From positions 1,248,001 through 1,312,000 of the forward strand of contig CBDFJF010000001.1 in the NCBI GenBank assembly GCA_965248265.1: DNA of 64,000 bases, read 5' to 3'. The notes beneath the pieces were generated by a model. That model worked only from the letters and a program-made list of their open reading frames with translations. It made no database searches and was not told the origin of the DNA. Position numbers and translations under genes: made by a program. This stretch comes from Candidatus Latescibacterota bacterium (GTDB lineage: Bacteria; Latescibacterota; UBA2968; UBA8231). Within the stretch, counting starts at the first letter, position 1. Each line of letters starts with the position of its first letter. Below, in pieces: positions 3,607 to 21,192 of this stretch.

Positions 3607-4800
3607 TTAGAACTGTGCGTCCATCTTGAGCGCGACCTTGAAGAATGGGCTGCCCTCTTCGTCCGCTCCTCCCAGGAGTTTGGCTCCAAGATCGATGCTG
3701 CGATTGTAGGCGTAGATTAGTTCGGTGGAGGACTGTATATAGGTACCCTTGAATCGGTAGTCGGTTTCATCCAGATCCGGGTCGAGTAGGTTCGAGTCGT
3801 AGACCTCGAAGAAGGTGTTCCATCTCAGCCCGTCCACCCACGACTCGCTCAGATCGTAGTTGCCCTGGACGTAGAATCCGCGTGTTTCGACACCGAGGTG
3901 ATCGTTGTCCATCAGTATAAACTCACCCAGCATGGTGAAGTCGTAGGTCATGCGATAGCGGTAAGAGAGCCCCCATGCCACGGTGGGTTCGGCGTCACGG
4001 CCGACGTCGTGAAGGTAAACGTTGCCCGCCAGATCGAACCTCGACCACCCTGTTCCTACCTTTAAAACAATATCCTTGAAATCGTTGACGTCCTTGTTCT
4101 TCAAGGTGCTGCCGCCTTGAAGTACACCGGTCTCATAGGCGAACCTGCCAGCGTTGCCGAACACGGTGAAACCAAGATCGGCTCGCCGCAGGGCCACACC
4201 CAGTGTTACAGGATCGGTCTTCAGGGCGCTCAGATTTCTGAACAGAGAAAAGTCGTCCCAGAATCCGAAGGGATTGCGAACTCTGCCGAGTTTAACACCG
4301 AGATTGTCCGACAGATAAAAATTGACCGCCGCTCGTTCGAAGTGCCCTTTCTCGCTTGCCTCGTCCAGCTCGTTGATGCTTTCGGTGACGATCCGATCGA
4401 TCTCGAGGATGCGTGCGTCCGCGTCTTCGTCGTCGGAGCCGATGCCCTCGAGGGACTCGGCGATGGTCAAGAACCCCCCGAGCAGATACAGGTCAGATGT
4501 AAGGGGCTGGTACTCGACAGTGAAATCCGCTTGAGGGCCGAGGTCACCTTCGAGGTTCAAGAAGATGTTGTTAAAATAGAACCTGCTGTGCTCCTCGAAG
4601 TTTTCACGGATTCTTCCTGTCAGACTGTGCAGATAGATGGTCTCGATTCGTCCCGAAATCAATAAATCGTCAGACGACTCCTCAGGTGCGTCGCTCGACT
4701 CTGCGCCAGCACCACTCTGGCCGTGAAGCTCGAGCGGACCCTGCACCAGTAAGGCGACTACCCAAGCGACGAAATACAGACTGAAGGATCTATTTTTCAT
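3607..4800 (-). CDS. Outer-membrane beta-barrel / porin-like protein
   Basis: Signal peptide, alternating aromatic/hydrophobic strands, GRVRNPFG porin-like motif, C-terminal Phe (MDAQF). Confidence 0.7.
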   Translation of the reverse strand: MKNRSFSLYFVAWVVALLVQGPLELHGQSGAGAESSDAPEESSDDLLISGRIETIYLHSLTGRIRENFEEHSRFYFNNIFLNLEGDLGPQADFTVEYQPLTSDLYLLGGFLTIAESLEGIGSDDEDADARILEIDRIVTESINELDEASEKGHFERAAVNFYLSDNLGVKLGRVRNPFGFWDDFSLFRNLSALKTDPVTLGVALRRADLGFTVFGNAGRFAYETGVLQGGSTLKNKDVNDFKDIVLKVGTGWSRFDLAGNVYLHDVGRDAEPTVAWGLSYRYRMTYDFTMLGEFILMDNDHLGVETRGFYVQGNYDLSESWVDGLRWNTFFEVYDSNLLDPDLDETDYRFKGTYIQSSTELIYAYNRSIDLGAKLLGGADEEGSPFFKVALKMDAQF

Positions 4801-5140
4801 GGAATTCCCCGTCTTTGTATCGCTTGAGTATGAGCTTTGCCGCAGCCACCCTATCCAATTTTATCTCTACGATTTTACCGATCTCCTCGGACAGCTCCTG
4901 CGGCTTGAGCACGACAGCAGTTCCCAGGGAGATGTAGTTGTCTTCGAGATAGATTTGTAGTTTCATCGTAAAGAAACGAGCCTTGCCTTCGTGTTCCTTC
5001 TCCACCAGGCTCAGGATATGAGTCAGGGATTTGACCGAATTGACCCTCTTGGTTTCTGGCAGCGCCTGTACCAGCGCCGGCAGCAGACAGAGGTTGAGTA
5101 GCGCCGCGAGCACTGCTATGCGGCCGCAAAACCTGATCAC
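4790..5140 (-). CDS. Small secreted hypothetical protein
   Basis: Signal peptide (LLPALVQA); overlaps the start of the downstream barrel gene, implying an operon. Confidence 0.65.
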   Translation of the reverse strand: MIRFCGRIAVLAALLNLCLLPALVQALPETKRVNSVKSLTHILSLVEKEHEGKARFFTMKLQIYLEDNYISLGTAVVLKPQELSEEIGKIVEIKLDRVAAAKLILKRYKDGEFHEK

Positions 5141-5242
5141 TTCACGACCCTCATGGTCTTGTCCTCTGGGATTGAATGGGCTACCCGGAGCGCAGAGGCC
5201 CGTGCTGAAAGTTAATCAATTTATCACCTCCGGAGACACACG

Positions 5243-6694
5243 ATGTCGTCGTTTCCATTGCATAACTGGATCGCACGTCGCATCAAAAACAAGATCCTGT
5301 TCTCGGTGCTGTTCGTATTCGTCGTCCTCTATGGCGCCACTCTCAGCGTTACCTATTCCAGCTCCAGAGCCGATTTGCTCAAAGCAGCCAAAGACGAGGC
5401 CCAGAGCACTGCCGAAACGCTGGCGCTGACCTTCTGGAGGAATTACGAGCTCGGAAACGACAGTGACATCAGGAACATCCAGAGCTATCTGTTCGGACTC
5501 GAACGCATCATAAACCGGCGCCGGTCCGAGACGTCTGGCAGCACCTCCGTTTTGCTCGAAGTCAACGTCATCGATCCCGGCCTGGTAATTCAGAACAGCA
5601 CCAGAGACGACAAGCTGTTCACCACGGTTGAGGGTGAAATCTACCGCAAGGCCGTCGCCAATACGCCGACAGCACAGCTGGTCATAGACGATGAAGAAGT
5701 GCCCTTCGTACATGTCGTGTACCCGGTGACCGGCGATGCTGGGAAAGAGGGAGTCGTCGCCACTGGAGCCGTCGAACTGAAGTTCAGTCTCGAACGGCAG
5801 TTTCATTCCCTTGCGCTCCTGCGAGTCAGGACGGCGCTTGCCGGCATCGTCATTCTGCTGGCCATCACCGTCGTCATCACCATCATATCCAATTCCATCA
5901 CCAAACCGATTCAGAATCTCTACGCCGGGATGAATGCGGTCGATGAGAAGGGAGATCTCGCAGTACAGGTCCCGGTCATCAGCGAGGACGAGGTGGGGTA
6001 CTTAACCTCTTCCTTCAACCAAATGATCGATTCCGTCCGTGTCTCCAACGACAAGCTGGTGGAAATGGTTACCTCATCACAGCGATTCGTACCTGCGCAG
6101 TTCTTGAGCGCCCTGGGGCGCGGCGACATCACCGACGTGAAACTCGGTGATGCCATTCTCAGAGACATGAGTGTCTTTTTCATGGATATCCGGGGCTTCA
6201 CCGACATGTCTCAAAGAATGACTGCCGAGGAAAACCTGACGTTTCTGAATTCCCTGCTCGAACGCATCCTCCCTTCGATCGAGGACAACCACGGATTCGT
6301 CGACAAGTACATGGGGGACTCGATCATGGCCTTGTTTGAAGACTCGGATGACGCCCTGCTCGCCGCCGTCGATCTGCGACGGGAGGTACTCGCCTTCAAC
6401 CAGACACGCACCGAAGGAGATGTCGACGTCGGCATCGGCATTAACTCGGGCGAGCTCATCCTGGGCACCATGGGCACTTCGGGCCGGATCGAGACGACCG
6501 TCATCGGCAGCACCGTCAATGTAGCATCGAGACTGGAGTCGCTGACCAAGGAGTTCCAGGTGCCCATCATCATCGCAGAGTCCGTGTATGAAACGCTGTC
6601 AGAGGAGACCCTTGCAGAGTTCGACACCCGGGAGCTGGGGCCGACCAAGATCCGGGGGATCGATCGTGAAATGAACTTGTTCGGAGTGACCTAA
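5243..6694 (+). CDS. Membrane class III adenylate cyclase (2 TM, periplasmic sensor, HAMP)
   Basis: HAMP (ITKPI...DEVGYLTSSFNQM); FMDIRGFT, DKYMGD, GIGINSG, TVIGSTVNVASRLE. The Lys/Thr specificity residues point to ATP as substrate. Confidence 0.92.
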   Translation: MSSFPLHNWIARRIKNKILFSVLFVFVVLYGATLSVTYSSSRADLLKAAKDEAQSTAETLALTFWRNYELGNDSDIRNIQSYLFGLERIINRRRSETSGSTSVLLEVNVIDPGLVIQNSTRDDKLFTTVEGEIYRKAVANTPTAQLVIDDEEVPFVHVVYPVTGDAGKEGVVATGAVELKFSLERQFHSLALLRVRTALAGIVILLAITVVITIISNSITKPIQNLYAGMNAVDEKGDLAVQVPVISEDEVGYLTSSFNQMIDSVRVSNDKLVEMVTSSQRFVPAQFLSALGRGDITDVKLGDAILRDMSVFFMDIRGFTDMSQRMTAEENLTFLNSLLERILPSIEDNHGFVDKYMGDSIMALFEDSDDALLAAVDLRREVLAFNQTRTEGDVDVGIGINSGELILGTMGTSGRIETTVIGSTVNVASRLESLTKEFQVPIIIAESVYETLSEETLAEFDTRELGPTKIRGIDREMNLFGVT

Positions 6695-7776
6695 AAACGC
6701 ACCTGCGTCCACAGGTACAGCCGGTCGTCAGCAACGTTGTCGTCGGCATCACCCTCCTCCCAGCGAAACTCGTAGTTGAGCAGCACGCGAAAGGCGTCTT
6801 GCTGCTCGCCATAGTAAGCGCCCACGGTCCAGCGAGTATATTCGTCGAAGAATGCTTCGTAACGCAGCAACGGACCGAACGGTCGCGACGTCTTGCCGAT
6901 CGCCGTCAGGTAGTAGGCGTAGATCGTCTCCTCTTCGCCTAGCTCCTTCTGTGGCCCGATGGCGAACTCCCCATTGAGATCGACGCGTGAAGTTTCATAC
7001 AGAAAGTCGGTACCGACTCGTTTGAAATCGATGAAGTAGCCGGTGATTTCATCGGTGGAATCGGTCGCCGCGATGATCTCCTCAGGATCGTACTGTTCCC
7101 ACTGGTCACCCAGGCCGGCAGAGACTCCCCACATCCACCTGCGGTCGGCTCCCCTGGCGTTTCGCAAGCCGAAGCGGCCCCAGACATTCTTGGCCTTGTT
7201 GTTGTCATGCTGCGTATTCATGCCGGAACCGTTGACGACGGCAACGTCATAGCTGACTCGCGTGCCACCGCCGAATGACCCTCTGCCGCGCAGACTCACT
7301 CCGACATCCCGCAGGTTGACGCCGCGCGCCAGGTTGTCCGACAGCTCGGTTCGATTGACCATGTATAGTTTACTCGATGATACCTGATTCTCGTAACCGA
7401 AGATCGTCTTCTGCTGCCCGATGCGCAGCCTCATGTTGTTGTTGAGCTTGAGGTTGAAGTAGGCGTCGCGCATGAATCCGCCGATTTCAGGAGGGCGAGG
7501 ATCAATATCCATTTCGTAGGAGATGTACTCGTTGATGACGCCCTCCACCGAGAGGCGGGCTCGCTGAACCCTGGCTCGACCGGCGTCGGACTCGTTGTCC
7601 CCATTGGTGTCTACCGGCAGGTTGACGACCTGGACCTGCACATAGCCGTAGACCTTCGGTCCCTTGTTGAGTTCGGGATCGGACTTCAGAATTGAATCCT
7701 TTGCCGCGATGGCACTCTGACTGCATATCAGGAGTCCCACCGCTACCGAAATGATCGCTTTCGCTGTGATGCTCAT
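6691..7776 (-). CDS. Porin, OprO/OprP phosphate-selective porin-like
   Basis: Start MSITAK with GGAGG RBS; signal peptide; RARLSVEG, DAYFN, RIGQQK..FGYEN..SS, RDVGV, NGSG motifs; C-terminal Phe. Confidence 0.75.
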   Translation of the reverse strand: MSITAKAIISVAVGLLICSQSAIAAKDSILKSDPELNKGPKVYGYVQVQVVNLPVDTNGDNESDAGRARVQRARLSVEGVINEYISYEMDIDPRPPEIGGFMRDAYFNLKLNNNMRLRIGQQKTIFGYENQVSSSKLYMVNRTELSDNLARGVNLRDVGVSLRGRGSFGGGTRVSYDVAVVNGSGMNTQHDNNKAKNVWGRFGLRNARGADRRWMWGVSAGLGDQWEQYDPEEIIAATDSTDEITGYFIDFKRVGTDFLYETSRVDLNGEFAIGPQKELGEEETIYAYYLTAIGKTSRPFGPLLRYEAFFDEYTRWTVGAYYGEQQDAFRVLLNYEFRWEEGDADDNVADDRLYLWTQVRF

Positions 7777-7856
7777 GACTGCAATTCCTCCCCTTTTTTC
7801 CTTGCGACCAGTATCCCGGTCGGCTTTATAGTGTGTTGTATCCTTTTCTCTTGTTG

Positions 7857-7872
7857 AGCAACGATTGTGCCT
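7857..7872 (-). promoter_or_regulatory. sigma54 -24/-12 promoter for the porin gene
   Basis: Minus strand AGGCACAATCGTTGCT (GG-N10-GC), about 80 bp upstream of the ATG. Confidence 0.75.
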
Positions 7873-7944
7873 GAACGACACCGAACGCTGCCAGGCGAGA
7901 TTAGCCTGAGTTGCGTTGAAGACTCTATCTACCGGTGGGCAAGC

Positions 7945-7990
7945 GCGCAGAAGTCAGCGCTCGAAATTCAGCAGTGCTGGAGTTTCAGCA
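7945..7990. promoter_or_regulatory. Putative enhancer (UAS) sites for the 7872 promoter
   Basis: Minus strand TGCTGAATTTCGAGCGC (7957-7973) and imperfect palindrome TGCTGGAGTTTCAGCA (7975-7990), 85-120 bp upstream of the -24 box. Confidence 0.55.
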
Positions 7991-8016
7991 GGAAATCGTC
8001 AGAGGTAGGGCCGGTA

Positions 8017-9153
8017 TCAAAATCTGATCTCGGGACCGGCGAACACGATGTGATCGACGTAGTCGTTCGCGGCGAACGACGAGTCGTTCATACGGAACAG
8101 ATAGCGGAGCTTGAGATGCGTTGCATCCCGCCATTTGTATTTGAGGAAAACGGATGACAGAAACAGGAGATCGTCGCGGGCGTTCTGCAGAATGGTGATT
8201 TCCTCTTCGTCTTCCCACATCTTGGAGATGAGCTCCTCGTAGGCCGAAATCGTTACCTTGTCGCTGAGTCGGCGGGAGTAGAGCACCGTCGCCTTGTGTT
8301 TCTTGAGATCGAACTCCGCCTCACTGTCCTGCGAGTCCTCGTGCCCCTCGACGCCGCCAATCTGGTCCAGACTCATCGATGACGACGAATCGATCTGGTA
8401 CATGTAGGTGGCGCTCAGGGTCTGGCGGGAGGAAATCAACCAATCGAATCCGGTTCGAAGGGTGTGACGGGACCCTCCTTCAACGGCGGAGATATTCTGG
8501 AACTCCTGCGGATTGGCGGACCCTTCATAGAGTTGCAGATCGTACGAGTAATAGGAAGAGAAACTGAAGCTCCACGTCTTGTGTGCTTCGACAAAAGCCC
8601 CGTTGACATCGTAATCCAGAGAGCTCGATTGCGGATACCGGGTGAGGATGTTCTGATACCCGACGCTCAACTGCCATTGGGGCGACAGCGGTCTCTTGTA
8701 GGTCAAGATGCCGGTATGCCTGGTAAAGTCGAAGGTGTCTTTGTCGGGCACGGTGAAATGGCGCAATTCACTCGTCAGGTGCAGGCCGTTCTCTCCGAGC
8801 CGGCGCACCAGTGACAGCCGCGTTCGGTTGAAGAACCAGTTCTCTTCTTCATGTTCGCTGTGGAGGTTCGCATGTCCAGTGTAGGCCGCATCCAGCCACC
8901 AGTCGGGACCCCAAGACTTGGCCAGCTGCAGATTCGCCGTAGGCTCGCTGATGAACGCCTCCTTGGTTCCTGCCCCTGTCGTCTTGCCGTTGCTCAGATC
9001 CAGGTTGGTGTTGAACTTGGCGAAAACGGCGGCGTTGCCGCTGAATTTCCAGCTGTCCTCGGACGGACTGTCCGCGGATGCATCTTGAGCATGATTGCCC
9101 CCGGCTGCCGGGCCATAGATGCAGAGAATGAACAGGAGGAGAAGAGGGATCAT
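8017..9153 (-). CDS. Outer-membrane beta-barrel protein of unknown function
   Basis: Signal peptide, amphipathic strands throughout, ends GPEIRF. Confidence 0.72.
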   Translation of the reverse strand: MIPLLLLFILCIYGPAAGGNHAQDASADSPSEDSWKFSGNAAVFAKFNTNLDLSNGKTTGAGTKEAFISEPTANLQLAKSWGPDWWLDAAYTGHANLHSEHEEENWFFNRTRLSLVRRLGENGLHLTSELRHFTVPDKDTFDFTRHTGILTYKRPLSPQWQLSVGYQNILTRYPQSSSLDYDVNGAFVEAHKTWSFSFSSYYSYDLQLYEGSANPQEFQNISAVEGGSRHTLRTGFDWLISSRQTLSATYMYQIDSSSSMSLDQIGGVEGHEDSQDSEAEFDLKKHKATVLYSRRLSDKVTISAYEELISKMWEDEEEITILQNARDDLLFLSSVFLKYKWRDATHLKLRYLFRMNDSSFAANDYVDHIVFAGPEIRF

Positions 9154-9737
9154 CTAGACTCTGCCTCCCGACGCCTGAGTTCTGCCGCCTGCTTCTTGTA
9201 TTCAGTCACCATCTCAGTCAGTCCTCCCACCTCGATATCCAGCTCGCTGATCGACCGAGTCAGCAATTCCAACTGATTCGCTGCCACGTTACGTCCCTCG
9301 CGCATGCGATGCATACGTTGCTGCAACTGAAGGTCACCGCCCAGTTGCACCTTGGCCAGATCTTCCAACACCTCCAGCTGGATTTCCAGAGCGTCGTTCT
9401 TGTCAGACCATTCCTGCCGCGCCGTCGTCAGTTTTTCCCGCTCTTCGGACAGGTCGTCGATCCTGTCTCTGATGATGTCGGCCTTCTCCATGATATCTTC
9501 AGGTCCGTCCAGTCTCCGTAACTGGATCGCCCGGCTCAAATCGGTCCAGGTTTTCCAAATGTAGGCCGGGTCGACGAACGTCGCCGCCGACACCGAGTCC
9601 TGGGCGGTCGTATCCTTGAAAGCGGTCACCGTGTCCACCTCTGCTTGGACGGACTCGGTCTCACCTTGACCCAGCGCCCCGGAGGGAACCGCAGCGAATA
9701 AAGACAGACAGACGAGAAGGGCGAATCGTGCCTGCAT
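9150..9737 (-). CDS. Secreted/periplasmic coiled-coil protein
   Basis: Signal peptide MQARFALLVCLSLFAA; long heptad E/L/R-rich helices; stop overlaps the barrel gene start. Confidence 0.7.
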   Translation of the reverse strand: MQARFALLVCLSLFAAVPSGALGQGETESVQAEVDTVTAFKDTTAQDSVSAATFVDPAYIWKTWTDLSRAIQLRRLDGPEDIMEKADIIRDRIDDLSEEREKLTTARQEWSDKNDALEIQLEVLEDLAKVQLGGDLQLQQRMHRMREGRNVAANQLELLTRSISELDIEVGGLTEMVTEYKKQAAELRRREAESR

Positions 9738-9833
9738 GTTCAGTTTTTGGTAGAGTCCATCCTCCTGTTTGGTGCTGTCGGCGAAGACATCAGGCAATGC
9801 CGTGCGACATGGCATGCTCATTGCACCTGAACT

Positions 9834-9849
9834 TGCAAGATTTGTGCCA
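9834..9849 (-). promoter_or_regulatory. sigma54 -24/-12 promoter
   Basis: Minus strand TGGCACAAATCTTGCA, a consensus match, upstream of the coiled-coil/barrel operon. Confidence 0.85.
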
Positions 9850-9961
9850 TCTTCGTGTCATCTGTGTGTCGGGGTTCATTGACGGATGACCCGTGTCAGA
9901 GAAGGAGGAGACCTCTGCCCCGGTACCTGCAGGCTGTGGTTGGAACCTCGAGCCATCTAAA

Positions 9962-10007
9962 TGCTGAAAATTGAGCGCTCAAATATGCGCGTCGCTGATT
10001 ATTCACC
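9962..10007. promoter_or_regulatory. Putative enhancer (UAS) sites for the 9849 promoter
   Basis: TGCTGAAAATTGAGCGC (9962-9978), perfect palindrome TTGAGCGCTCAA (9971-9982), CGCTGATTATTCACC (9993-10007). Confidence 0.55.
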
Positions 10008-10059
10008 GGGGAAATGTCTCGTCATGGACGCAGAAAGCGATGTTTTCGACCTTCTGACC

Positions 10060-10752
10060 ATGCACACGAGCAAAATCCTGGAGGCAGATCATTTCCAATA
10101 CCGTTGTCTGGACCCGGATGGTGGACAAACCTCGGCTGTCAGCTTCCAGACCTTATGCCCGGACTACCACATCCTGGACCGGCTCGGCATCGTGTCCGTC
10201 CCGTTCGAAGCCGGGTTGCGCAGGACCGGCCTGGCTGTGCTGGCCTGGACTACCGCCTACTACGATGCCATGCGCGCCGCCCATCCGGACGGGTTCTTCA
10301 ACTACCCGCAGCATTACCTCTTCTACACCGAATCGGGAACGCTCACCGACAAGGCCCTGGGAAGCTGGGGGCATCTGGACGTCTGGCCGGACTGTAAACG
10401 GGTCGCTTCTCCAGACTCGGTGACCGGTATCGTTGAGAAGCTGTTCGACTACGAAATCAACCGCTTACTGTGGCCCCACTCCCTTTCCTCGGTAGAGGGT
10501 GAGACGCTACCAGACTATGTGAAGAGGATGCTGTGCACCCGGTTGAAGGCCGTCTATCTGTATGACAGCGACTCCCCCACATTCGAGATCCACGGAGCCG
10601 AACCCGCGGTACAATTGACGCGCGAAGCGCTCGAGAAGGCTGGCCTGGACGGCAGTAGTGACTCGTCAGAGGTATCTGTCGAAGCCTACCGGCAAATCGA
10701 CGTCGACCGCTTTCTCGAAACCTTCCTCGGTTCCGTCTTCGACCGATCCTGA
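10060..10752 (+). CDS. Conserved-looking hypothetical cytoplasmic protein (start uncertain: 9961, 9985 or 10060)
   Basis: Long ORF with protein-like composition (DRLGIV, T.AYYD, FFNYP, HLDVWP), 15 bp before the histidine kinase. Confidence 0.7.
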   Translation: MHTSKILEADHFQYRCLDPDGGQTSAVSFQTLCPDYHILDRLGIVSVPFEAGLRRTGLAVLAWTTAYYDAMRAAHPDGFFNYPQHYLFYTESGTLTDKALGSWGHLDVWPDCKRVASPDSVTGIVEKLFDYEINRLLWPHSLSSVEGETLPDYVKRMLCTRLKAVYLYDSDSPTFEIHGAEPAVQLTREALEKAGLDGSSDSSEVSVEAYRQIDVDRFLETFLGSVFDRS

Positions 10753-10767
10753 CATCATCACATCAGC

Positions 10768-12228
10768 ATGTTCGCACGCCTGCAACAGTTCGGCCGCTCC
10801 ATCTTCCTCAAGCAGGTGCTGCTTTACATCCTCATTATCATGCTGATTTCCGGTGTCATCGGATTCCTTTTCTTTACTACGGCGCGGCAGCATGACGAGG
10901 AGGAGATCGGCCGCAAACTGCAGTCAGTCGCCCGCATCAGTGCGCGTGACACACCATTCGAGCGTCTCGAACTGATTCGCCTCGGGCATGACCAGACGCG
11001 CAACGTCCTGAACATGAAGAGTAAGCTCGAGGACATCCGTCAGGCCACGGGCGTTGCCAACATTCATGTGTTCAGATCCGATCGCAGCTCACTGCTGGAC
11101 CTGGATGGACGCTTTCGCATCGGTTCGACGCGCCGGTTACCCCAGTTCGATGCCGCACTCACCGCCGCGTTGACCACCGGTGAGCCGGCGCACTCCAAAA
11201 GCTACCGCAACGCTCGAGATGAGCTGATCATGTCGGCCTATGCACCGATCATGGATCTCGACGGACAACTGTTCGCCATCGTGGGGGTCGACGGCGGGGC
11301 TGGTGAACTCGCCATCATCGAGCAAATGGGAATCCGACTCTCCTGGATCACCGTCGTCGCCATCGGTGTTGCCTGTCTGCTCGCACTGTTCTTTGCTCGC
11401 AGCATCACCTCACCCGTGCGCGAGATCGCACACACGGCCGAGCGCCTGGGTCGGGGGGATTACCAGGCGCGAGTAGCGATTCGCTCGAGGGATGAGCTGG
11501 GGGTGCTGGCCGACTCGATAAACCGCATGGCGGAGGCGGTGCGCGAGCGCGACGCGGCGCTCAAGGAGATGGCGGCGACGGTCGCTCACGAAATCCGCAA
11601 TCCGCTCAACTCAATGAAGCTCCTGCTGTCCCTCCTGGATGAAGAGCTGCAGGAGGGAGCGACACCAGTATCGACACTGCGTACACTGGAGTACGAAATT
11701 GGCAAGCTCAATCGCTTCACAGAGGAGTTTCTCACCTACTCCCGGCCCGTGACACTCATTCGCGATCAGGTCGCGGTGTCCAGCCTTGTCACCTCCGTCC
11801 TCGACATGGCGGCTGCGGCTGCACGGGAAGCTGACGTGGCGTTGACCTATAATGCGGGAGACGATGACGACATCGAGGTCTTCGTCGATCGATTACGGTT
11901 GGAACAGACATTGCTGAACATCGTCTTGAATGCCGTCGAAGCGTGCGGTGGCGGTGGAGAAGTCACCTTGCGCGCCGTGAGACCACAACAGGACGGGTTG
12001 CAACTTATCATCGAGGATACGGGTTCCGGCCTGGACCCGGAGGTGTTGCCGCAGATTTTCGACCCCTTCTTTACTACCAGAGCTGACGGCACCGGGCTGG
12101 GATTGGCCAACGCTCTCAAGATCATTGAGGAACACGAAGGCTCCGTGCACGCAGAGAACAGGCCCGAAGGGGGAGCACGCATGACCGTATACCTGCCAGC
12201 CGATCGGCTGGTCTTTGACAAAGGCTGA
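10768..12228 (+). CDS. Sensor histidine kinase (2 TM, Cache-like, HAMP, HisKA, HATPase)
   Basis: H-box AHEIRNPLN; N box LLNIVLNAVEA; DTGSG; FDPFFTTR; GTGLGL. Confidence 0.95.
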   Translation: MFARLQQFGRSIFLKQVLLYILIIMLISGVIGFLFFTTARQHDEEEIGRKLQSVARISARDTPFERLELIRLGHDQTRNVLNMKSKLEDIRQATGVANIHVFRSDRSSLLDLDGRFRIGSTRRLPQFDAALTAALTTGEPAHSKSYRNARDELIMSAYAPIMDLDGQLFAIVGVDGGAGELAIIEQMGIRLSWITVVAIGVACLLALFFARSITSPVREIAHTAERLGRGDYQARVAIRSRDELGVLADSINRMAEAVRERDAALKEMAATVAHEIRNPLNSMKLLLSLLDEELQEGATPVSTLRTLEYEIGKLNRFTEEFLTYSRPVTLIRDQVAVSSLVTSVLDMAAAAAREADVALTYNAGDDDDIEVFVDRLRLEQTLLNIVLNAVEACGGGGEVTLRAVRPQQDGLQLIIEDTGSGLDPEVLPQIFDPFFTTRADGTGLGLANALKIIEEHEGSVHAENRPEGGARMTVYLPADRLVFDKG

Positions 12229-12231
12229 AAC

Positions 12232-13614
12232 ATGACGGCCATATTGATTGCCGACGACAACAGATCGACAACCCAGACCCTGAGTGCCCTCGTCGAACGC
12301 TGGGGTCACACCGCCCTGCCAGCCTTCGACGGCACCCAGGCACTGGCGTTGTTGGAAGCGGAGACCGTCGACATTCTGTTGACTGACTTGCGCATGCCGA
12401 ACCTCGACGGCATGGAATTGTTGACCATCGTCAAGGAGCGCTGGCCGGAGATCGTCGTCATCGTCGTCACCGCCTTCGGCAGCATTGAGACGGCAGTCAC
12501 GGCGATGCAGTCAGGGGCTTTTGATTTTCTCACCAAGCCCTATGACAGCGACGAGCTCAGAGTAAAACTCGCCAAAGCCGGGGCACAGCGTGAGATGATC
12601 GTGAAAATGGAGCGCCTCAACGCCCGCATCGCATCCTTCGAGGACGAGGCCCAGCTCCAACTGGGCATGGGCGAGATCATCGGCACCAGCCAGGCAATGC
12701 AGAGCGTCTTCGAGAACATCCGCAAGGTGGCTCCGACGGAATCCACGGTGTTGATCCAGGGTGAAAGCGGCACCGGCAAGGAACTGGTCGCCCGCGCCAT
12801 CCACAAACAGAGCCCGCGCCGGGACAAGGCCTTCGTTGCCGCGCATTGTCCGGCCTACGCCGAGGGGGTCCTCGAGAGCGAGCTGTTCGGGCATGAAAAA
12901 GGCGCCTTCACTGGAGCATATGCTCGCAAGATCGGACGGCTGAAACTGGCTGACGAAGGCACGCTGTTCCTGGATGAGGTCGGTGATATCTCGCCGGCGG
13001 TCCAGGTCAAGTTGCTGCGGGTACTTCAGGAGAGAGAGTTCGAACGCGTCGGGGGTACCAAGACCATCCACACGCAAAACCGCACGGTCGCGGCCACCAA
13101 TCGTGACCTGAGTGCCGCGATCGCCAGCGGCGAATTCCGTGAGGACCTGTTCTACCGGCTGAACGTGTTCTCGATCATGCTGCCACCTCTGAGAAACCGC
13201 AAGGAAGACATCCCCAGCTTGATCGAGACCTTCTGCCGTCACCAATCCGAGCGCCTCAACCGGCCGATATCCGGACTGTCACAACGGGCCGTCGAGACCA
13301 TGATGGCCTATGACTGGCCGGGCAACATCCGTGAACTCCAGAACGTGATCGAACGCGCCGCCATCGTAACCGAGAGTGGCGAAATCGACGTCGAAAACCT
13401 TCCCGTGGGCGTGGACGCAACGGAAAACCGCACACACGTCTCATTGCCAGAGGACGATGTCAACTTCGACGACGAGATGGAGCAATTCGAACGCCGGCTC
13501 ATCTTGCATGCCTACGAGAAGTCCGGCAAGGTCAAAGCCCGAACCGCCAAGATGCTCGGCATCGACCGCAATCGCCTGCGGTACAAACTGAAAAAGTATG
13601 GCATCGACGATTGA
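12232..13614 (+). CDS. sigma54-dependent response regulator (NtrC/AtoC family: REC-AAA+-Fis HTH)
   Basis: ADD and TDLRMP receiver motifs; GESGTGKE; [15 protein letters not shown]; LFLDEVGD; [11 protein letters not shown]; WPGNIREL; HTH. Confidence 0.96.
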
Positions 13615-13640
13615 AGCCCTCAACCCTGCGTCCATGTCCT

Positions 13641-13674
13641 GCCTAGAATTCAGCAGGTGCTGATTTCTTAGCGC
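13641..13674. promoter_or_regulatory. Putative enhancer (UAS) sites for the 13832 promoter
   Basis: TGCTGATTTCTTAGCGC (13658-13674) and an inverted TGCTGAATTCTAGGC (13641-13655); AT-rich stretch 13741-13780 lies between these and the promoter. Confidence 0.5.
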
Positions 13675-13831
13675 GCGATTTTCGCTCCGTCCGCCTGCTC
13701 CAAAACCCACGCTGCACCCTGATCGCTCCGAAATCGATCGGATAATTTCTCTCTCATCCTGTTGTTAATAATCGCTTTATAGGATACTGGCCCGTCTGAA
13801 TCTCAGTGTTGGGGTCAGTCTTGTTGTCGCG

Positions 13832-13847
13832 CGGTATGAGCCTTGCT
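13832..13847 (+). promoter_or_regulatory. sigma54 -24/-12 promoter upstream of PAP2-VTC-DUF4956
   Basis: CGGTATGAGCCTTGCT (GG-N10-GC, TTGCT -12 box), 80 bp before the ATG. Confidence 0.65.
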
Positions 13848-13927
13848 ATCGATACCTACCGTGGACGAGATCCGTTCGCCAAGCAAGGGAATTTTGATTG
13901 GAATGAGCTGGAGCAGGAGTCTCTGAT

Positions 13928-14632
13928 ATGATCGGAGCCGACACCGCCGTGATCGCACTCGCCCTGCTGCTGCAGGGCCCCGGTGTGGACCGCGATGCCA
14001 GGGACCTGGCCTCGCAGCAGAATGCCCTCATCGGAGCGGGCGGACTCTTGCTGGCAGCCGGAGCCTACGTAGCCGCGGACGATCCGCGCGACCAACTGGA
14101 AGGCCACTGGCTCACCGACAACCCCTCCAAACTCACCAACGTTTACGGTGCCAGCCGTTTCAACCTGCCAGCTTCGCTGAGCGTATGGACTCTCGGTACG
14201 GTGGGTCACAACCCTGGCTTGCGTGATCTGGGGGCTGATCTGACCCGGACCTTGACGCTGACTCAGTTGGCCGTTGGACCAATCAAACTAGCTACGCGGC
14301 GGCGGCGCCCCGATGGCTCCAATCGTCTCTCGTTCCCGTCCGGCCACACCGCCAACTCTTTTGCCGTGGCTCGCATGATCCAGCGCAAGTACAGCCTCAA
14401 ACTCGCCTGGCCGCTCTACGTCCTGGGTGGATTCACCGGCTCCGGCCGGGTGGCCGGCGGACATCACTACGTATCGGATGTCGTCATGGGGGCTGCCGCC
14501 GGAATAATCGTTGGCAGCACAGTCCGCATCCGCAATCCGGCTGCCACACGAGGCTCTACACTTGAAAGACTGACCTTCGTCCCCCACATCGGCGCGGGCG
14601 GTGGTTTCCTGCATCTGGCAGTGAGTTTCTAA
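13928..14632 (+). CDS. PAP2 family phosphatase
   Basis: C1 K..T.R.RP, C2 FPSGH, C3 SGR...GHHYVSDV. Confidence 0.9.
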   Translation: MIGADTAVIALALLLQGPGVDRDARDLASQQNALIGAGGLLLAAGAYVAADDPRDQLEGHWLTDNPSKLTNVYGASRFNLPASLSVWTLGTVGHNPGLRDLGADLTRTLTLTQLAVGPIKLATRRRRPDGSNRLSFPSGHTANSFAVARMIQRKYSLKLAWPLYVLGGFTGSGRVAGGHHYVSDVVMGAAAGIIVGSTVRIRNPAATRGSTLERLTFVPHIGAGGGFLHLAVSF

Positions 14633-14844
14633 ACAGGAATTGCGATGAAATCTCGATCCCGTGTCGGTCACTGTGCTGCATTCCGCGAGAAGCGTTCCCG
14701 CCTCAATATTGGGGATGCGACCCTCCCACTCGTGGGACTTCGCCCCCGGACCGGCCGCGAGGGCGGTCCGCATGGACCAGGGTGTCGGGCACGGGGCTGG
14801 CACGCGGATCTCTTGTCCAGCTCCCGGGAACCAGGAGCAAGCAC

Positions 14845-15594
14845 ATGAAGCGCTTCAATCGCTTCGAACTGAAGTATTCCATCACGGCTGCTCAATGTGA
14901 AGCAGTAAAGCGCGACCTTGCCGACCATATGCTTCCCGACGGCAACAGCGCGGATGACGGCTTCTACGATATTGCCAGTCTCTACTACGATACACCGGAC
15001 CTGGCCTTCATGCGCTCCAAGCGTGAAGGCATCAAGTTCAGGCGTAAACTGCGCATCCGCCACTACGGAACGGCGGAGGGAGCAGCCGATGACAACCAGC
15101 CCGTGTACGTCGAGATCAAACAGCGAATCAATCGCACTACACAGAAGAGACGCCTGACACTGCCACTCCATGCCGCCTACGTGCTGTGCGACGGTCACCT
15201 CGAGGAAACCATCGACGACGCCACTGACTCGCAGGCAGCGGACGAGGTGCTCTTCCTTGCTCGCAGTCTGGACCTGCAGCCGACCTGTCTTGTGGGCTAT
15301 CGGCGGGAGGCCTTCGTGGGGTCACGCTACGAACCCGGGCTTCGTGTCACCTTCGACAACTCCCTCTGGGCGGCTCAGCCGGAGGGCGGCCTGTCACTAC
15401 CCGCAACGCGGCACGCGATGACACCTCCACAGGCCTTCTTGATGGAGGTGAAAGCCAATAACGCGGTGCCGGTGTGGCTGGCCAGCATGCTGGCGCGTCA
15501 CCAATGCACCCTCGTGAGGTACAGCAAGTACTGCGCCGCGGTGGCCCGGTTAGATGAGCTGGATCTGCTTGCGCTTCCCGCCGCAGCATCGTAG
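14845..15594 (+). CDS. VTC-domain (polyphosphate polymerase-like, TTM/CYTH tunnel) protein
   Basis: RFELKY, SLYYDT, RRKLRIRHY, VEIKQR, YRREAF, LRVTFD, MEVK, YSKY; AGGAG RBS. Confidence 0.9.
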   Translation: MKRFNRFELKYSITAAQCEAVKRDLADHMLPDGNSADDGFYDIASLYYDTPDLAFMRSKREGIKFRRKLRIRHYGTAEGAADDNQPVYVEIKQRINRTTQKRRLTLPLHAAYVLCDGHLEETIDDATDSQAADEVLFLARSLDLQPTCLVGYRREAFVGSRYEPGLRVTFDNSLWAAQPEGGLSLPATRHAMTPPQAFLMEVKANNAVPVWLASMLARHQCTLVRYSKYCAAVARLDELDLLALPAAAS

Positions 15595-15641
15595 CGATCG
15601 TTGATCGAGCCAGTACCCCTGGGAAAAGACAGAGGCGGAAC

Positions 15642-16337
15642 ATGGATGAGCTGATCAAGGAAATGGAACGTTTTCGCGACCTCACCAGCGTGTTCACCTT
15701 CACGGATGTCGCTATCGTGTTGCTGCTCAGCTTCGCATCATCGATGGTGATGGGCCTGGTGTATCGTGCCACTCACCGCGGCACCTCCTACGCACAATCC
15801 TTTGCGCAGACCCTCGTCATCATGGGTATGGTCACCGCTCTTATCATGCTCATCATCGGATCGAATATCGCGCGCGCCTTCTCCCTCGTCGGTGCTCTGT
15901 CAGTCATCCGGTTTCGCAACGCGGTGAAGGAAACCCGCGATATCGGCTTCATGTTCCTGGTCATGGCCATAGGCATGGCCTGCGGGACGCGGTTCTACAT
16001 GCTGGCAGCCTTTGCCACGGCGGTGTTCACCGTCGTTATCAGCGGCATGCACAAGCTGGACGTTTTCAGTAAACACGTGACCGAGCGCATCCTACGGGTG
16101 CGACTGCCCCTGGGTCGTGACAGCGAAGAAACATTGGAGCCGATATTTCGTGAGTACTTGACTGAGAGTCGGCTGGTGGCGATGGAGTCGGTAGCAGGGG
16201 GGGTCCTGCAGGAACTCGTCTACGTTGTTCTGCTGAAGGACGAGGGCGCTCCGGATACCTTCGTCGAGGCTGTGCGCACGGCTGCGAACAACAACAAAGT
16301 GGCTCTGGTAATGGGTCAACAAGAAGTGGATTTGTAG
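15642..16337 (+). CDS. DUF4956 family membrane protein
   Basis: IGSNIARAFSLVGALSVIRFRNAVKETRD and MAIGMACG; several TM helices plus a C-terminal soluble domain; typical VTC neighbour. Confidence 0.88.
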   Translation: MDELIKEMERFRDLTSVFTFTDVAIVLLLSFASSMVMGLVYRATHRGTSYAQSFAQTLVIMGMVTALIMLIIGSNIARAFSLVGALSVIRFRNAVKETRDIGFMFLVMAIGMACGTRFYMLAAFATAVFTVVISGMHKLDVFSKHVTERILRVRLPLGRDSEETLEPIFREYLTESRLVAMESVAGGVLQELVYVVLLKDEGAPDTFVEAVRTAANNNKVALVMGQQEVDL

Positions 16338-16417: not shown

Positions 16418-16849
16418 TCAAACAGCCCCAAGCAGGGCCTGTGCGTCCTTTTTTCCCAGTTTTCTCACCTCGGCCAATGCGTGGCGATTGCTGCCTCGCG
16501 GTGCAGACCTTCCGGATTCCCAGAACACAACCGTGGTCGTACTCACGCCCAGCAGTTGACCCAGCTGAGCCTGAGACAACTTCATACGCTTGCGATGGTT
16601 TCTGATTGACGTCGGGCTGATGCGTACGGCCTTGGATTTCTCTTCCTCGAGACTCTTCCCGTTCGCCGCCGCTCCTGCCTTGCGCGAAGCAGTTAGGGCT
16701 TTCTGCAAACCGGCAACCTGACCGCGCAGGACTTTGATTCCACTTTTTAGATCTCTGATCTGCTTGCTTTGGACACTCGTCGCGAATTTAACCTCCTTGC
16801 GAGCGAGACGACGGATCTCCTCCCGGAGGACTGATGCAACATCTGGCAT
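16418..16849 (-). CDS. XRE-family HTH regulator with N-terminal coiled coil
   Basis: RKRMKLSQAQLGQLLGVSTTTVVFWESGRSAP HTH_3 motif. Confidence 0.85.
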   Translation of the reverse strand: MPDVASVLREEIRRLARKEVKFATSVQSKQIRDLKSGIKVLRGQVAGLQKALTASRKAGAAANGKSLEEEKSKAVRISPTSIRNHRKRMKLSQAQLGQLLGVSTTTVVFWESGRSAPRGSNRHALAEVRKLGKKDAQALLGAV

Positions 16850-18754: not shown

Positions 18755-19600
18755 TCACTCCAGAACGTCGCTGTGCTCGACCTGGAATACCTGTGAGTGC
18801 AGGTTGGCCAGCCACTGTTTCCCGTCCTGCGTCGCCTGGAGGAATCTGGTTGCGTGCTGGATGTAAGGGCTGACTTCCTTCCAGAAGAAACTGGCGTACC
18901 CGCGCCGCATGTCATCGGGGGTTTTATACCCGGCCTCGGCGTTGCCCCCACTCTGTTCGAACTCGTAGAACAGCGCTGGGATCTTGCGCAGATAATCGGG
19001 GTCTCCCAGTTGTCCGATAAAGTCGGCGGCACGGAGAAGACCTGCGAAACTCTGCGTGTCCTTGTAGTCCGGGTCGTCCGGTACCGGAAAACGAGTCGTT
19101 TCGATGTAGGAAGCGATGATCTCAGGATCGAGGTCCAGGAGAGTCTTCCCGCCAAAGCGCTCCCGTACGAATTGCTTGCTGCGGTCGACGTGGTACGGCG
19201 TCAACGAGGCATCGGTTCCGCCCGGAGGGAGTTTGATCGTCTTTTTGCCCACCCCGGTCGCGTAGGTGCCAACCCCATCGAGCTTGCACACGCCACGCAC
19301 GTATCCGATGTCGTGACAGAGTAGGGCCGTGATGAAATGGGCCCACTCGCGCGGCGACACGCCACCGGCCGTCAGGTGTTTGCCGATCAGAATCTGCTGT
19401 CCCACTGTGGTCACCAGCATCGTATGCTCAATGTCGTGGTAAAGCATGTCGGAGTTGGCGATGTTTTCCAGCGCGAAGCGTCCCACCCAGTTGACGTAGC
19501 CACTGTAGGACGATTCCAGGTCTCCGAAGGCGTCCTTGTAGTCTGCCTCCAGACTCTGACTGAACCGCTTTATGGTTAGGTATTTGAAATTGAATAACAT
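18755..19600 (-). CDS. HD-domain metal-dependent phosphohydrolase (Npun_R2479-like)
   Basis: YHDIEHT, LCHDIGY, PYHVDRS, TRFP, RAADFIGQ. Confidence 0.85.
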   Translation of the reverse strand: MLFNFKYLTIKRFSQSLEADYKDAFGDLESSYSGYVNWVGRFALENIANSDMLYHDIEHTMLVTTVGQQILIGKHLTAGGVSPREWAHFITALLCHDIGYVRGVCKLDGVGTYATGVGKKTIKLPPGGTDASLTPYHVDRSKQFVRERFGGKTLLDLDPEIIASYIETTRFPVPDDPDYKDTQSFAGLLRAADFIGQLGDPDYLRKIPALFYEFEQSGGNAEAGYKTPDDMRRGYASFFWKEVSPYIQHATRFLQATQDGKQWLANLHSQVFQVEHSDVLE

Positions 19601-19709
19601 GCGGGGCTGCCCTTCAGTTTTGGTAATATCGACGGTAATTGAGAATCTAGGCGGTTTGGACACCTGGCGCCACGGCAATCCCGCTTGTCGCTGAAAGGAG
19701 CCGATCGCG

Positions 19710-20554: not shown

Positions 20555-21082
20555 TCAGAATCCCCAGTTCACTATCGGCAGGAAGCCTCTGGGCGTACCG
20601 CTTTTGTTGAAATTGAGAATGCCGACCTGCAACGCGCCATCCAGACTCTCAGCGGTGTTCCAGATCCCCAGTTGCAGCCCGTGTAGCTCGCCTGCCTGAT
20701 TGTAGAATGCTGTCTGCAATCCCGAGGTACGACCACCGGTTATGTTGACGACGCCGGTCTGCCAACCTTTGAATTCGCCATTCACACGGTTGTACACCCC
20801 GTCCTGAAGGCCCGACGCGTTGCCGTCCACTATATTGACCAGCCCTGACTGCAGACCAACGAAATCACCTGTCGTCTTGGTCACCAGGCCGAGATCCAGA
20901 CCGGTGACGTCATGATTGACACCGTAGATCAAACTCAACCTGAGACCCTTCACCGATTCGTCTGCGGAGACAATCTGAGCAGGCGTGTAGAGCGCGACCT
21001 GGATCGGTGATTCTGCTCCTACCTGGGTGGCAAGGCAGGCGGTGAGAACGATCATGGGTGCTGTACCATATATCCGTTTCAT
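20555..21082 (-). CDS. Surface-repeat protein (LA_2272-like G-x-Q-x-G-x-x-N repeats)
   Basis: Repeats GLQSGLVN, GLQDGVYN, GWQTGVVN, GLQTAFYN, GLQLGIWN; ends FLPIVNWGF. Confidence 0.8.
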   Translation of the reverse strand: MKRIYGTAPMIVLTACLATQVGAESPIQVALYTPAQIVSADESVKGLRLSLIYGVNHDVTGLDLGLVTKTTGDFVGLQSGLVNIVDGNASGLQDGVYNRVNGEFKGWQTGVVNITGGRTSGLQTAFYNQAGELHGLQLGIWNTAESLDGALQVGILNFNKSGTPRGFLPIVNWGF

Positions 21083-21192
21083 CGGTTTGCTCCCGTTCGG
21101 TGTGGTTGAGCGCAACCTACTCTATCCTCGCCTCTCTTCTTCCACTCTTCCGTGTCAGTGCTCTCGTGAGATCGATCATCCGGAGCGCGAGG

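Follow-up and report, generated by a model that had tools for sequence, protein, structure and literature searches.

A candidate CotH-less derivative of a diderm VTC envelope module beside a predicted sigma-54 two-component system in a Latescibacterota genome

Bacterial polyphosphate (polyP) is ascribed to PPK1 and PPK2, and we know of no bacterial mechanism for delivering polyP or phosphoryl groups outside the cytoplasm. At the yeast vacuole, the VTC complex feeds its growing polyP chain through a membrane channel. A 13-kb gene cluster in a Candidatus Latescibacterota bacterium (assembly GCA_965248265.1, contig CBDFJF010000001.1, positions 1,248,001 to 1,312,000; this stretch of 64,000 nucleotides is hereafter referred to as the window, and features are given in its coordinates with their strand) combines a VTC-domain protein with a DUF4956 membrane protein, outer-membrane barrels, a PAP2 phosphatase and a two-component system, and raises the question of what a yeast-type polymerase does in such company. 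A reading of the sequence alone (the sequence-only reading) had proposed that the cluster at 3607-16337 encodes one undescribed, signal-induced machine that makes, exports or processes polyP, or a phosphorylated surface polymer, through both membranes. Here we report a computational analysis of this cluster. We judge, with a probability of about 0.5, that it is a rearranged derivative of a diderm VTC envelope module that lacks the CotH kinase of its sister loci and stands, in this Latescibacterota family, under a sigma-54 two-component system. New here are the CotH-less version of the module, its split into three units with the same rare motif and its tie to a defined two-component module.

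An open reading frame (ORF) list, together with Pfam and NCBIfam scans, located every gene that the sequence-only reading had listed in the 13 kb. The VTC gene (14845-15594(+)) encodes a 249-residue protein that matches PF09359 at E 3.1e-42 (145.2 bits against a cut-off of 23) and consists of the VTC domain alone, with neither an SPX domain nor a fused membrane channel. A profile of 19 VTC proteins matched the catalytic domain of Vtc4 (3g3q) at E 3.6e-20, as against 6e-8 to 2e-6 (about 1e-7) for the inactive Vtc2 and Vtc3, and nothing beyond VTC subunits was matched in the PDB at E up to 0.01; phmmer with the single window sequence gave no PDB match. In the profile alignment, on which residues were counted by hand, K10, R70, R72, K92, K101 and Y152 of the window protein align to Vtc4 K200, R264, R266, K281, K294 and Y359, and R154, R167, E201, K203, S227 and K228 align to R361, R373, E426, K428, S457 and K458. 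All twelve tunnel residues are invariant among the 19 sequences, and all except K10 in an alignment of 76. Nine of them (Vtc4 K200, K281, K294, Y359, R361, R373, K428, S457 and K458) we take to be the catalytic tunnel residues that remain beside R264, R266 and E426. These last three are the residues mutated to inactivate Vtc4, according to PMC9911596.

On this sequence evidence, the window protein is a candidate Vtc4-like triphosphate-tunnel polyP polymerase. Because the Vtc4 catalytic residues are kept, neither a dead enzyme nor one that acts only as a hydrolase, the outcome that the sequence-only reading had named as speaking against it, is indicated. A search of 61 genomes, those of 60 relatives together with the host genome, gave VTC matches in 18, with orthologues at 62-67% identity in only three relatives (G011, G021 and G008). 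The host genome (7.3 Mb, 92% complete) was searched for PPK2, which was not found; it holds a canonical PPK1 elsewhere, so the VTC protein would be an extra, specialised enzyme.

The DUF4956 gene (15642-16337(+); PF16316 at E 2.3e-15, with a weak MgtC match at 8e-4) begins 47 bp after the VTC gene, and the pairing extends far beyond this genome. Among the 80 nearest VTC loci, taken from GTDB species genomes, DUF4956 lies in the fetched stretch of 78, the two misses being contigs of 3.5 and 1.5 kb. We also fetched 20 VTC neighbourhoods from relatives and compared them by tblastn: 18 have a DUF4956 match in the fetched stretch, and of the 16 stretches with distant VTC genes (26-35%), 14 have DUF4956 and no other gene of the cluster. 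The DUF4956 structure model (mean predicted local distance difference test (pLDDT) score 82.4) comprises five MgtC-like membrane helices followed by a C-terminal beta-alpha-beta-beta-alpha-beta domain of the ferredoxin/ACT-like kind. Four predicted transmembrane segments and an ACT domain are given for a streptococcal homologue in PMC12345266. Conservation peaks in helix 3 and the following loop (G73-D100), which hold the invariant residues R78, R90, R92, K96 and R99. Foldseek found no match for the model at E up to 1e-3, generic ferredoxin-like matches being confined to the C-terminal domain, for which Pfam at E up to 5 gave nothing meaningful. Prediction of a 1:1 complex of VTC and DUF4956 scored 0.01, which is no answer and counts neither for nor against binding.

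The pair resembles the eukaryotic VTC complex in its tunnel domain with catalytic arginines, lysines and glutamate, and in a membrane partner encoded next door. It differs in that the VTC protein has no SPX domain and no fused transmembrane domain, the partner combines five MgtC-like helices with an ACT-like domain instead of being a three-helix subunit of the Vtc1 type, and the set lies under predicted sigma-54 transcriptional control in a two-membrane envelope with a porin.

The description of the system as undescribed goes too far. CotH, a 'poly-phosphate polymerase' and DUF4956 are in print as accessory genes of Gram-positive pel operons (PMC7112168), and deletion of the CotH-like and DUF4956-like genes of Streptococcus intermedius lowers Pel-dependent aggregation (PMC12345266); in the literature searched, however, no biochemical work on VTC or DUF4956 proteins from bacteria was found. 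The window shares with the Gram-positive trio the adjacent VTC-DUF4956 pair, but it comes from a diderm with a Porin_O_P gene and a sigma-54 regulon, and neither a pel locus nor CotH was found in its genome.

Comparison of the 80 VTC loci revealed a related arrangement in diderms. Thirteen of them (Latescibacterota; Myxococcota or 'Deltaproteobacteria') run in the order CotH, a membrane protein of about 200 residues (the 200-aa protein), VTC, DUF4956, and four more contain CotH with the 200-aa protein undetectable. CotH starts with a signal or anchor sequence; one membrane helix is present in the 200-aa protein, for which Pfam at E up to 5 gave nothing meaningful. We called 129 ORFs in 14 diderm loci and put 96 through Pfam, leaving out those identified by tblastn and some long ORFs on the opposite strand. 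By Pfam and tblastn together, a Porin_O_P gene adjoins 10 of the 13 module loci, firmly in nine (L047-L051, L057, L060, L063 and L112) and at 20.3 bits against a cut-off of 20.9 in L061; none was found at L126, and L052 and L064 were only partly examined, with spurious long ORFs masking them. A DUF3108-like protein recurs in L049, L051, L052 and L060. The Myxococcota locus L057 also carries, downstream of the porin, a second and shorter CotH (13292-15085 of that locus) that combines a C-type lectin domain with a MopE-like metal-binding motif.

The porin of the window (6691-7776(-)), a 361-residue protein from the ATG at 7776, belongs to this family, with a PF07396 match (E 4.1e-12; 46.5 bits against a cut-off of 20.9) that covers profile positions 3-129 of 370; a GTG start at 7881 was considered and rejected. 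The OprO/P-like barrel of the sequence-only reading is borne out by a match over threshold. OprP (2o4v) was the only PDB match of the porin profile (E 9.6e-4), over 94 profile positions, which is too short to place the arginine ladder or the lysine cluster. The window porin thus shares PF07396, and its sole solved match, with OprP and OprO of Pseudomonas aeruginosa, but the match is weak, spans the N-terminal third only, and the porin is not under PhoB. An orthologue at 69% identity is present in L027, the locus of G011, and high-scoring segment pairs reach 45-52% in L028 (G021) and 47% in L029 (G008). The host genome has three Porin_O_P genes including this one, and a better, full-length one lies elsewhere.

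With the diderm operons of porin, CotH, membrane protein, VTC and DUF4956 (L047-L052, L057, L060, L061, L063 and L112), the window has the porin, VTC and DUF4956 families in common; it differs in being split into units, in the loss of CotH and the 200-aa protein, in the position of PAP2 at the head of the VTC unit, and in extra barrels and a cyclase. CotH (PF08757) was not found in the host genome, tblastn with the relatives' CotH and 200-aa proteins against that genome gave nothing at E up to 1e-6, and tblastx upstream of VTC detected no convincing remnant of either. Because neither gene was found in the genome, we regard the cluster as a derived version of the module. In a quick VTC tree with a midpoint root, the window protein groups with L048 (SH-aLRT support 96) and then with L049 and L052 (99), all of them CotH-adjacent, and the 60 rows without CotH nearby (actinomycete, Chloroflexota, Candidate Phyla Radiation and one archaeon) form a separate group; since it falls among the CotH-adjacent proteins, the loss of CotH looks secondary. 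The metagenome contig L130, which encodes an outer-membrane barrel 87% identical to one in the window (barrel C, described below), keeps CotH and the 200-aa protein directly upstream of a coiled-coil protein and this barrel, all tightly packed, and the absence of both genes here is therefore most simply a recent loss. The window holds a natural CotH-less version, in which porin, VTC and DUF4956 are kept without the kinase.

The full set also recurs in another order. In G021 and G008, which belong to one genus, a histidine kinase, a response regulator, the coiled-coil protein and barrel C are followed by the porin, a CotH of about 900 residues, the 200-aa protein, VTC, DUF4956 and PAP2, then by the cyclase on the opposite strand, a 116-residue protein and barrel A. 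In the metagenome contig L135, the same four genes precede porin, CotH, 200-aa protein, VTC and DUF4956, and G011 holds only the latter five. The grouping goes beyond chance: two related genomes hold the complete set in a different arrangement, and metagenome contigs hold parts of it. Several genes in these relatives seem frame-split (VTC and the histidine kinase in G008, barrel A and the porin in G021, DUF4956 in G011); in these long-contig metagenome-assembled genomes the splits are probably assembly indels rather than pseudogenes.

The units into which the window version is divided have signals in common in their upstream regions. Upstream of the -24/-12 elements of the porin gene, an alignment of four genomes revealed a conserved block, TGCTGAA...TGCTGAA...AGCGCT, from which we derived the near-palindromic motif TGCTGAWWWYNNAGCGC (core GCTGAA-N2-TTCAGC). 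In the window, the porin is preceded by a sigma-54-type element with one mismatch (AGGCACaatcgTTGCT, 7857-7872(-)) and, within the aligned block, by tandem putative activator sites with an exact motif match (TGCTGAATTTCGAGCGC and TGCTGAAACTCCAGCAC, 7957-7990(-)). The coiled-coil and barrel C genes are preceded by TGGCACaaatcTTGCA (9834-9849(-)), one of two perfect sigma-54 consensus matches in the window, and about 130 bp upstream of it lies an exact putative activator site (TGCTGAAAATTGAGCGC, 9962-9978(+)) that overlaps the first codons of a 263-residue ORF. A further sigma-54-like element with one mismatch (TGGCATgctcaTTGCA, 9810-9825(+)) faces this ORF, the histidine kinase and the response regulator. 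Upstream of PAP2, an exact putative site (TGCTGATTTCTTAGCGC, 13658-13674(+)) precedes a weak sigma-54-like element (CGGTATgagccTTGCT, 13832-13847(+)) located 81 nt before the start codon, with three mismatches but intact GG and GC cores. The three copies of TGCTGAWWWYNNAGCGC in the cluster are 106-180 bp upstream of the -24/-12 elements of the porin, the coiled-coil/barrel pair and the PAP2-VTC-DUF4956 unit.

The motif is rare. At up to two mismatches it occurs eight times in the window against 1.40 expected, a count reached by none of 100 shuffles, and six of the seven palindrome matches in the window at this threshold fall inside the cluster. Exact copies in the 7.3-Mb genome number four (7957, 9962, 13658 and one on contig C2), where composition predicts 0.17. 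We rejected the C2 site as a fourth member of the regulon: it is not an independent copy, because it sits in a segmental duplicate (C2:1841421-1842307) with 87.5% nucleotide identity to window 9960-10822. The duplication takes in the 263-residue ORF and reaches ~55 nt into the kinase gene, and the C2 version has an extra ADYS repeat near the N terminus.

Comparable signals accompany these genes elsewhere. In L047, L048 and L050, the porin is likewise preceded, at a similar spacing, by a sigma-54-type element, and in relatives a single site of this kind precedes one co-directional run of porin, CotH, 200-aa protein, VTC, DUF4956 and PAP2. In metagenome contigs, GCTGAA-N2-TTCAGC directly follows barrel C in L132, L133, L136, L137 and L139, and in L135 it lies 2.6 kb beyond barrel C, in front of the porin; the histidine kinase is preceded by a sigma-54-like element in L132 and by a pair of activator sites in L135. 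Activator sites and sigma-54 elements also occur upstream of PAP2 in L137, with a PepSY-like ORF in between, and in L129, at about 660 bp. The response regulator has all the features of the NtrC type, and rpoN is present in the genome. Apparently, then, the regulator controls all three units through the predicted TGCTGAWWWYNNAGCGC sites and sigma-54-type promoters. The claim that shared promoter elements link the genes finds support for the porin, the coiled-coil/barrel C pair and PAP2-VTC-DUF4956, but not for the cyclase, the 116-residue protein and barrel A. The motif and its regulator provide a handle for tracing the regulon in other genomes and for seeking the inducing signal.

The regulators themselves belong to a second, separable layer. 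The sensor histidine kinase (10768-12228(+); periplasmic domain, HAMP, HisKA and HATPase by Pfam) is nearest to the NCBIfam models AtoS and ZraS, and the response regulator (12232-13614(+); receiver, Sigma54_activat AAA+ domain at E 1.7e-69 with GAFTGA, and a Fis-type HTH_8 helix-turn-helix) is AtoC/ZraR-like, all under the model cut-offs; orthologues reach 54-64% and 63-75%, respectively. The layout of a HAMP-HisKA kinase and a receiver-AAA+-Fis activator with GAFTGA is that of ZraSR and AtoSC, but the scores lie well under the equivalog cut-offs, the sensor domain has no family, and the operon adds a coiled-coil periplasmic protein and a 16-stranded barrel. The former is a secreted protein of 195 residues from the ATG at 9737 (9150-9737(-)), with a signal peptide, whose gene overlaps the start of barrel C. 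The latter (8017-9153(-), 378 residues) yielded a 16-stranded model (pLDDT 78.8) that Foldseek matched to OmpC/OmpF/AlgE-type barrels at E about 1e-8. Its family, with 35 homologues in 5.8 billion proteins, none of them named, includes weak DUF2490, DUF481 and BBP2_2 matches in 2-3 of 18 members; a relationship to Porin_O_P was ruled out (hhalign probability 0.5%). A DUF4956 gene is listed beside a DUF2490 barrel gene as iron-responsive in Bacteroides thetaiotaomicron, according to PMC10434189.

Barrel C directly follows kinase, regulator and coiled-coil genes in L028, L029, L127, L132 and L135, and regulator and coiled-coil genes in L131 and L133; a coiled-coil match precedes it in all nine loci where upstream DNA was available. 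What comes next varies. In G019 (L127), where no VTC was found, an activator-like site, a perfect sigma-54 promoter and an uncharacterised 243-residue gene come after the four genes, with a TonB-dependent receptor upstream; L132 continues with two TonB-dependent receptors and, further on, PAP2, L137 with a PepSY-like protein and PAP2, and L136 with a sulfatase/phosphodiesterase-family enzyme. Kinase, regulator, coiled-coil protein and barrel C are a separate lineage-specific module whose downstream genes vary between genomes. TonB-dependent receptors with carboxypeptidase-regulatory-like N termini were seen beside the module at 3301-6018 of L127, 4161-6836 of L128 (G033) and 11356-16834 of L132, a recurrence that hints at control of uptake genes by the module in other lineages.

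PAP2 (13928-14632(+); PF01569 at E 1.4e-11) follows the same layer. Its motifs Kx6RP (K120-R127-P128), PSGH (P137-S-G-H140) and Rx5Hx3D (R174-H180-D184) are invariant in five orthologues, the serine of SRx5Hx3D in the third being replaced by glycine. PDB profile matches were best to LpxE (8.5e-8) and PgpB/YodM (3.3e-6). Judged by these matches, the protein is an LpxE/PgpB-type lipid-phosphate phosphatase, with all three motifs intact and LpxE and PgpB/YodM as its best solved relatives, but unlike LpxE it falls under the NCBIfam LpxE cut-off (25.8 against 177 bits). Across the window, G021, G008, G004, G033, L132 and L137, PAP2 follows the two-component system rather than VTC, even where no VTC was found, which speaks against its assignment by the sequence-only reading to a polyP machine. 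The neighbourhood comparison that reading had called for thus gave a divided answer: the porin recurs with VTC and DUF4956 in two phyla, but PAP2, the coiled-coil protein and barrel C track the two-component system. In place of one machine, the cluster resolves into three layers, namely the cross-phylum porin, VTC and DUF4956; the kinase, regulator, coiled-coil protein and barrel C; and the cyclase, 116-residue protein and barrel A.

If the first two of these layers act together as we suppose, the periplasmic domain of the kinase would sense an envelope signal, and the phosphorylated NtrC-type regulator would bind the near-palindromic sites (core GCTGAA-N2-TTCAGC, TGCTGAWWWYNNAGCGC) and activate three sigma-54 units, comprising the porin, the coiled-coil protein with barrel C, and PAP2-VTC-DUF4956. 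The cytoplasmic VTC protein would polymerise polyP from ATP at the inner membrane, on or through the five-helix DUF4956 protein, and the anion-type Porin_O_P channel would offer phosphate polymers or their breakdown products a path through the outer membrane. PAP2 would be a co-induced lipid-phosphate phosphatase that remodels the envelope outside the polyP machine, and barrel C and the coiled-coil protein would be co-induced envelope components rather than parts of the conduit. The analysis itself shows which genes are present, how they are conserved, that the catalytic residues are kept, and where the common motif is placed. That the product is polyP, that DUF4956 translocates it, which way the porin conducts and what the signal is we infer; for passage of the polymer through the inner membrane we draw on the analogy with yeast and on the CotH kinase that sister loci export. 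A yeast-type polymerase that has a membrane protein as its constant partner, and in diderms a phosphate-type porin as well, suggests delivery of polyP or phosphoryl groups outside the cytoplasm. Outside the cell there is no ATP for an exported CotH kinase. Tentatively, and with more doubt than confidence, one may envisage a general polyP secretion route of diderms that leads from a Vtc4-like polymerase through a DUF4956 channel to Porin_O_P, with the polymer serving as phosphoryl donor for exported CotH in most lineages and as a surface product under sigma-54 induction here.

Several observations weigh against this account. The Porin_O_P match spans just a third of the family profile, and ion specificity is not readable from it. 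A channel role for DUF4956 is drawn from analogy, because its membrane domain has no solved look-alike by Foldseek, and neither expression nor biochemical data on a VTC/DUF4956 pair of any bacterium were found in the literature searched. Across the window, matches to the sigma-54 consensus are no more frequent than expected (28 at up to two mismatches against 28.6), so only position and conservation carry that argument. Two of the three sites among which the motif was counted had themselves helped to define it. Of the individual signals, the element before PAP2 departs from the consensus at three positions; a weak hairpin, 36 bp past the stop codon of the regulator gene, overlaps the site at 13658 and may instead serve as a weak terminator for the regulator operon; and the site at 9962 lies inside the 263-residue ORF and was duplicated with it on C2. 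PAP2, barrel C and the coiled-coil protein are among the genes that accompany the two-component system in L127 (G019), L132 and L137, and no VTC was found in the stretches available for these loci. CotH and the 200-aa protein, present in 13 of 13 module loci, were not found in this 92%-complete genome, and a module without CotH may work differently here or be decaying.

The same genes can be read in the opposite direction, as a Pho-like scavenging regulon in which the porin imports phosphate, pyrophosphate or polyP, PAP2 and further induced hydrolases release phosphate in the periplasm, VTC stores polyP in the cytoplasm, and DUF4956 is only an anchor or regulator. Phosphate limitation induces OprP and OprO, which work as uptake channels (PMC9769906), in other lineages the two-component module lies upstream of TonB-dependent receptors, PAP2 and a sulfatase/phosphodiesterase-family enzyme, and secreted phosphatase-type genes stand beside VTC loci of other phyla, encoding PhoX (L059, 7759-9732), a purple-acid-phosphatase-like protein (L055, 1289-2893) and an Exo_endo_phos protein (L051, 14116-15147). 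We nevertheless consider scavenging unlikely: the cross-phylum operon joins porin and VTC to an exported CotH and a membrane protein, which a system for uptake and storage would hardly explain, PPK1 and a better, full-length Porin_O_P gene are already encoded elsewhere in the genome, the closest relatives of PAP2 are lipid phosphatases rather than soluble acid phosphatases, and the regulator is an AtoC/ZraR-like sigma-54 activator rather than PhoB. That regulator, together with a kinase that scores best against AtoS and ZraS (both proteins under cut-off), would suit an envelope- or metal-stress regulon of the ZraSR/PmrAB kind, without any conduit, in which cations or surface damage are sensed, PAP2 takes phosphates off lipid A or other lipids, the set of outer-membrane barrels changes, and polyP acts as chelator or chaperone. 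The LpxE-like character of PAP2, the PepSY-like proteins and TonB-dependent receptors that recur downstream of the module in relatives, and the variation of the downstream genes, expected of a regulon rather than a machine, all agree with this. But in Myxococcota the porin stays linked to VTC and DUF4956, for the most part in the absence of this two-component system, Pfam showed no metal-binding motif or metal transporter in the cluster, and the sensor domain of the kinase matches no family, so that we hold a stress regulon to be quite improbable.

Two further readings concern the enzyme and the grouping. Triphosphate-tunnel enzymes catalyse varied reactions (PMC4641920), and the VTC protein could be a tri- or polyphosphatase, or make a different phosphoryl donor, in a cluster that handles a phosphorylated surface polymer. 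Strand 1 of the bacterial VTC proteins retains a glutamate (E8) at the position of a threonine in Vtc4, L058 and L118 have glycosyltransferases at their flanks, and the Gram-positive trio lies in pel polysaccharide loci, where the two-gene deletion lowers Pel (PMC12345266). With a VTC profile far closer to catalytic Vtc4 than to any other solved protein and every alignable tunnel residue conserved, we find a non-polymerase very unlikely. It is hardly credible, finally, that the genes are mere neighbours, a patchwork kept by descent in one family with shared function only in the VTC-DUF4956 pair. The full set was indeed found only in the window genome, G021 and G008, the last two of one genus, no motif ties the cyclase, 116-residue protein and barrel A to the rest, and the 263-residue ORF is a recent duplicate; yet gene order was shuffled between genomes while the set was kept, one and the same rare motif stands at each of the split units, and the adjacency of the porin recurs in another phylum. 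The rearranged CotH-less module therefore remains our preferred reading.

The third layer occupies the start of the cluster. All three barrels have a signal peptide and a final phenylalanine; barrel A (3607-4800(-), 397 residues) further shows a weak KdgM match, a language-model look-alike score of 0.97 to Porin_O_P/BBP2 clusters and an hhalign probability of 55% (E 1.2e-4) against the porin profile, and by these sequence comparisons it is probably a distant Porin_O_P relative. Its orthologues reach 62% in G008 and G021, with fragments in G004. Directly upstream, with a four-codon overlap, lies the gene for a small secreted protein of 116 residues (4790-5140(-)) that has a signal peptide and no Pfam family at E up to 5, and for which a language-model look-alike search gave no usable match; its orthologues (57-65%) adjoin barrel A in L028 and L029. 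The divergent gene encodes a membrane sensor with two transmembrane segments, HAMP (3.6e-10) and a class III nucleotide cyclase domain (Guanylate_cyc, 5.7e-18; 5243-6694(+)); its orthologues in L028, L029 and L129, at 51-59% identity, likewise have PAP2 and barrel A as neighbours. Cyclase, 116-residue protein and barrel A occur together in G021 and G008, and in G004 both the cyclase and barrel A persist as fragments next to PAP2. In the window, no activator site or good sigma-54 element was found for these three genes. A weak palindrome half-match with two mismatches at 5204-5217, between the 116-residue gene and the cyclase, could represent either another activator site, the fourth, or a chance match.

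The sensor domains of the cyclase and the histidine kinase, the coiled-coil protein and the 263-residue ORF matched no Pfam family at E up to 5, and a relationship between the two sensor domains was rejected (BLASTP E 2.7). Of the secreted hypotheticals in the sequence-only reading, two exist, the 195-residue coiled-coil and 116-residue proteins; the product of the 263-residue ORF (9961-10752(+)), by contrast, is cytoplasmic, because it has no signal peptide. This lineage-specific ORF was not found in the relatives' loci by tblastn and has no family in Pfam or NCBIfam. Its paralogue on C2 has 86% amino-acid identity, and because the differences are distributed 20/10/48 over the codon positions, it is a real coding gene; the HEAT-like gene that precedes the kinase in G021 was considered as a relative and found to be unrelated. 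Directly downstream of DUF4956, on the opposite strand, lies an MqsA/Xre-type helix-turn-helix protein gene (16418-16849(-)), followed within a few kilobases of the cluster by an Npun_R2479-family HD-domain metalloprotein, slightly under the NCBIfam cut-off (18755-19678(-)), and a VC2662/LA_2272-type surface-repeat lipoprotein (20555-21115(-)).

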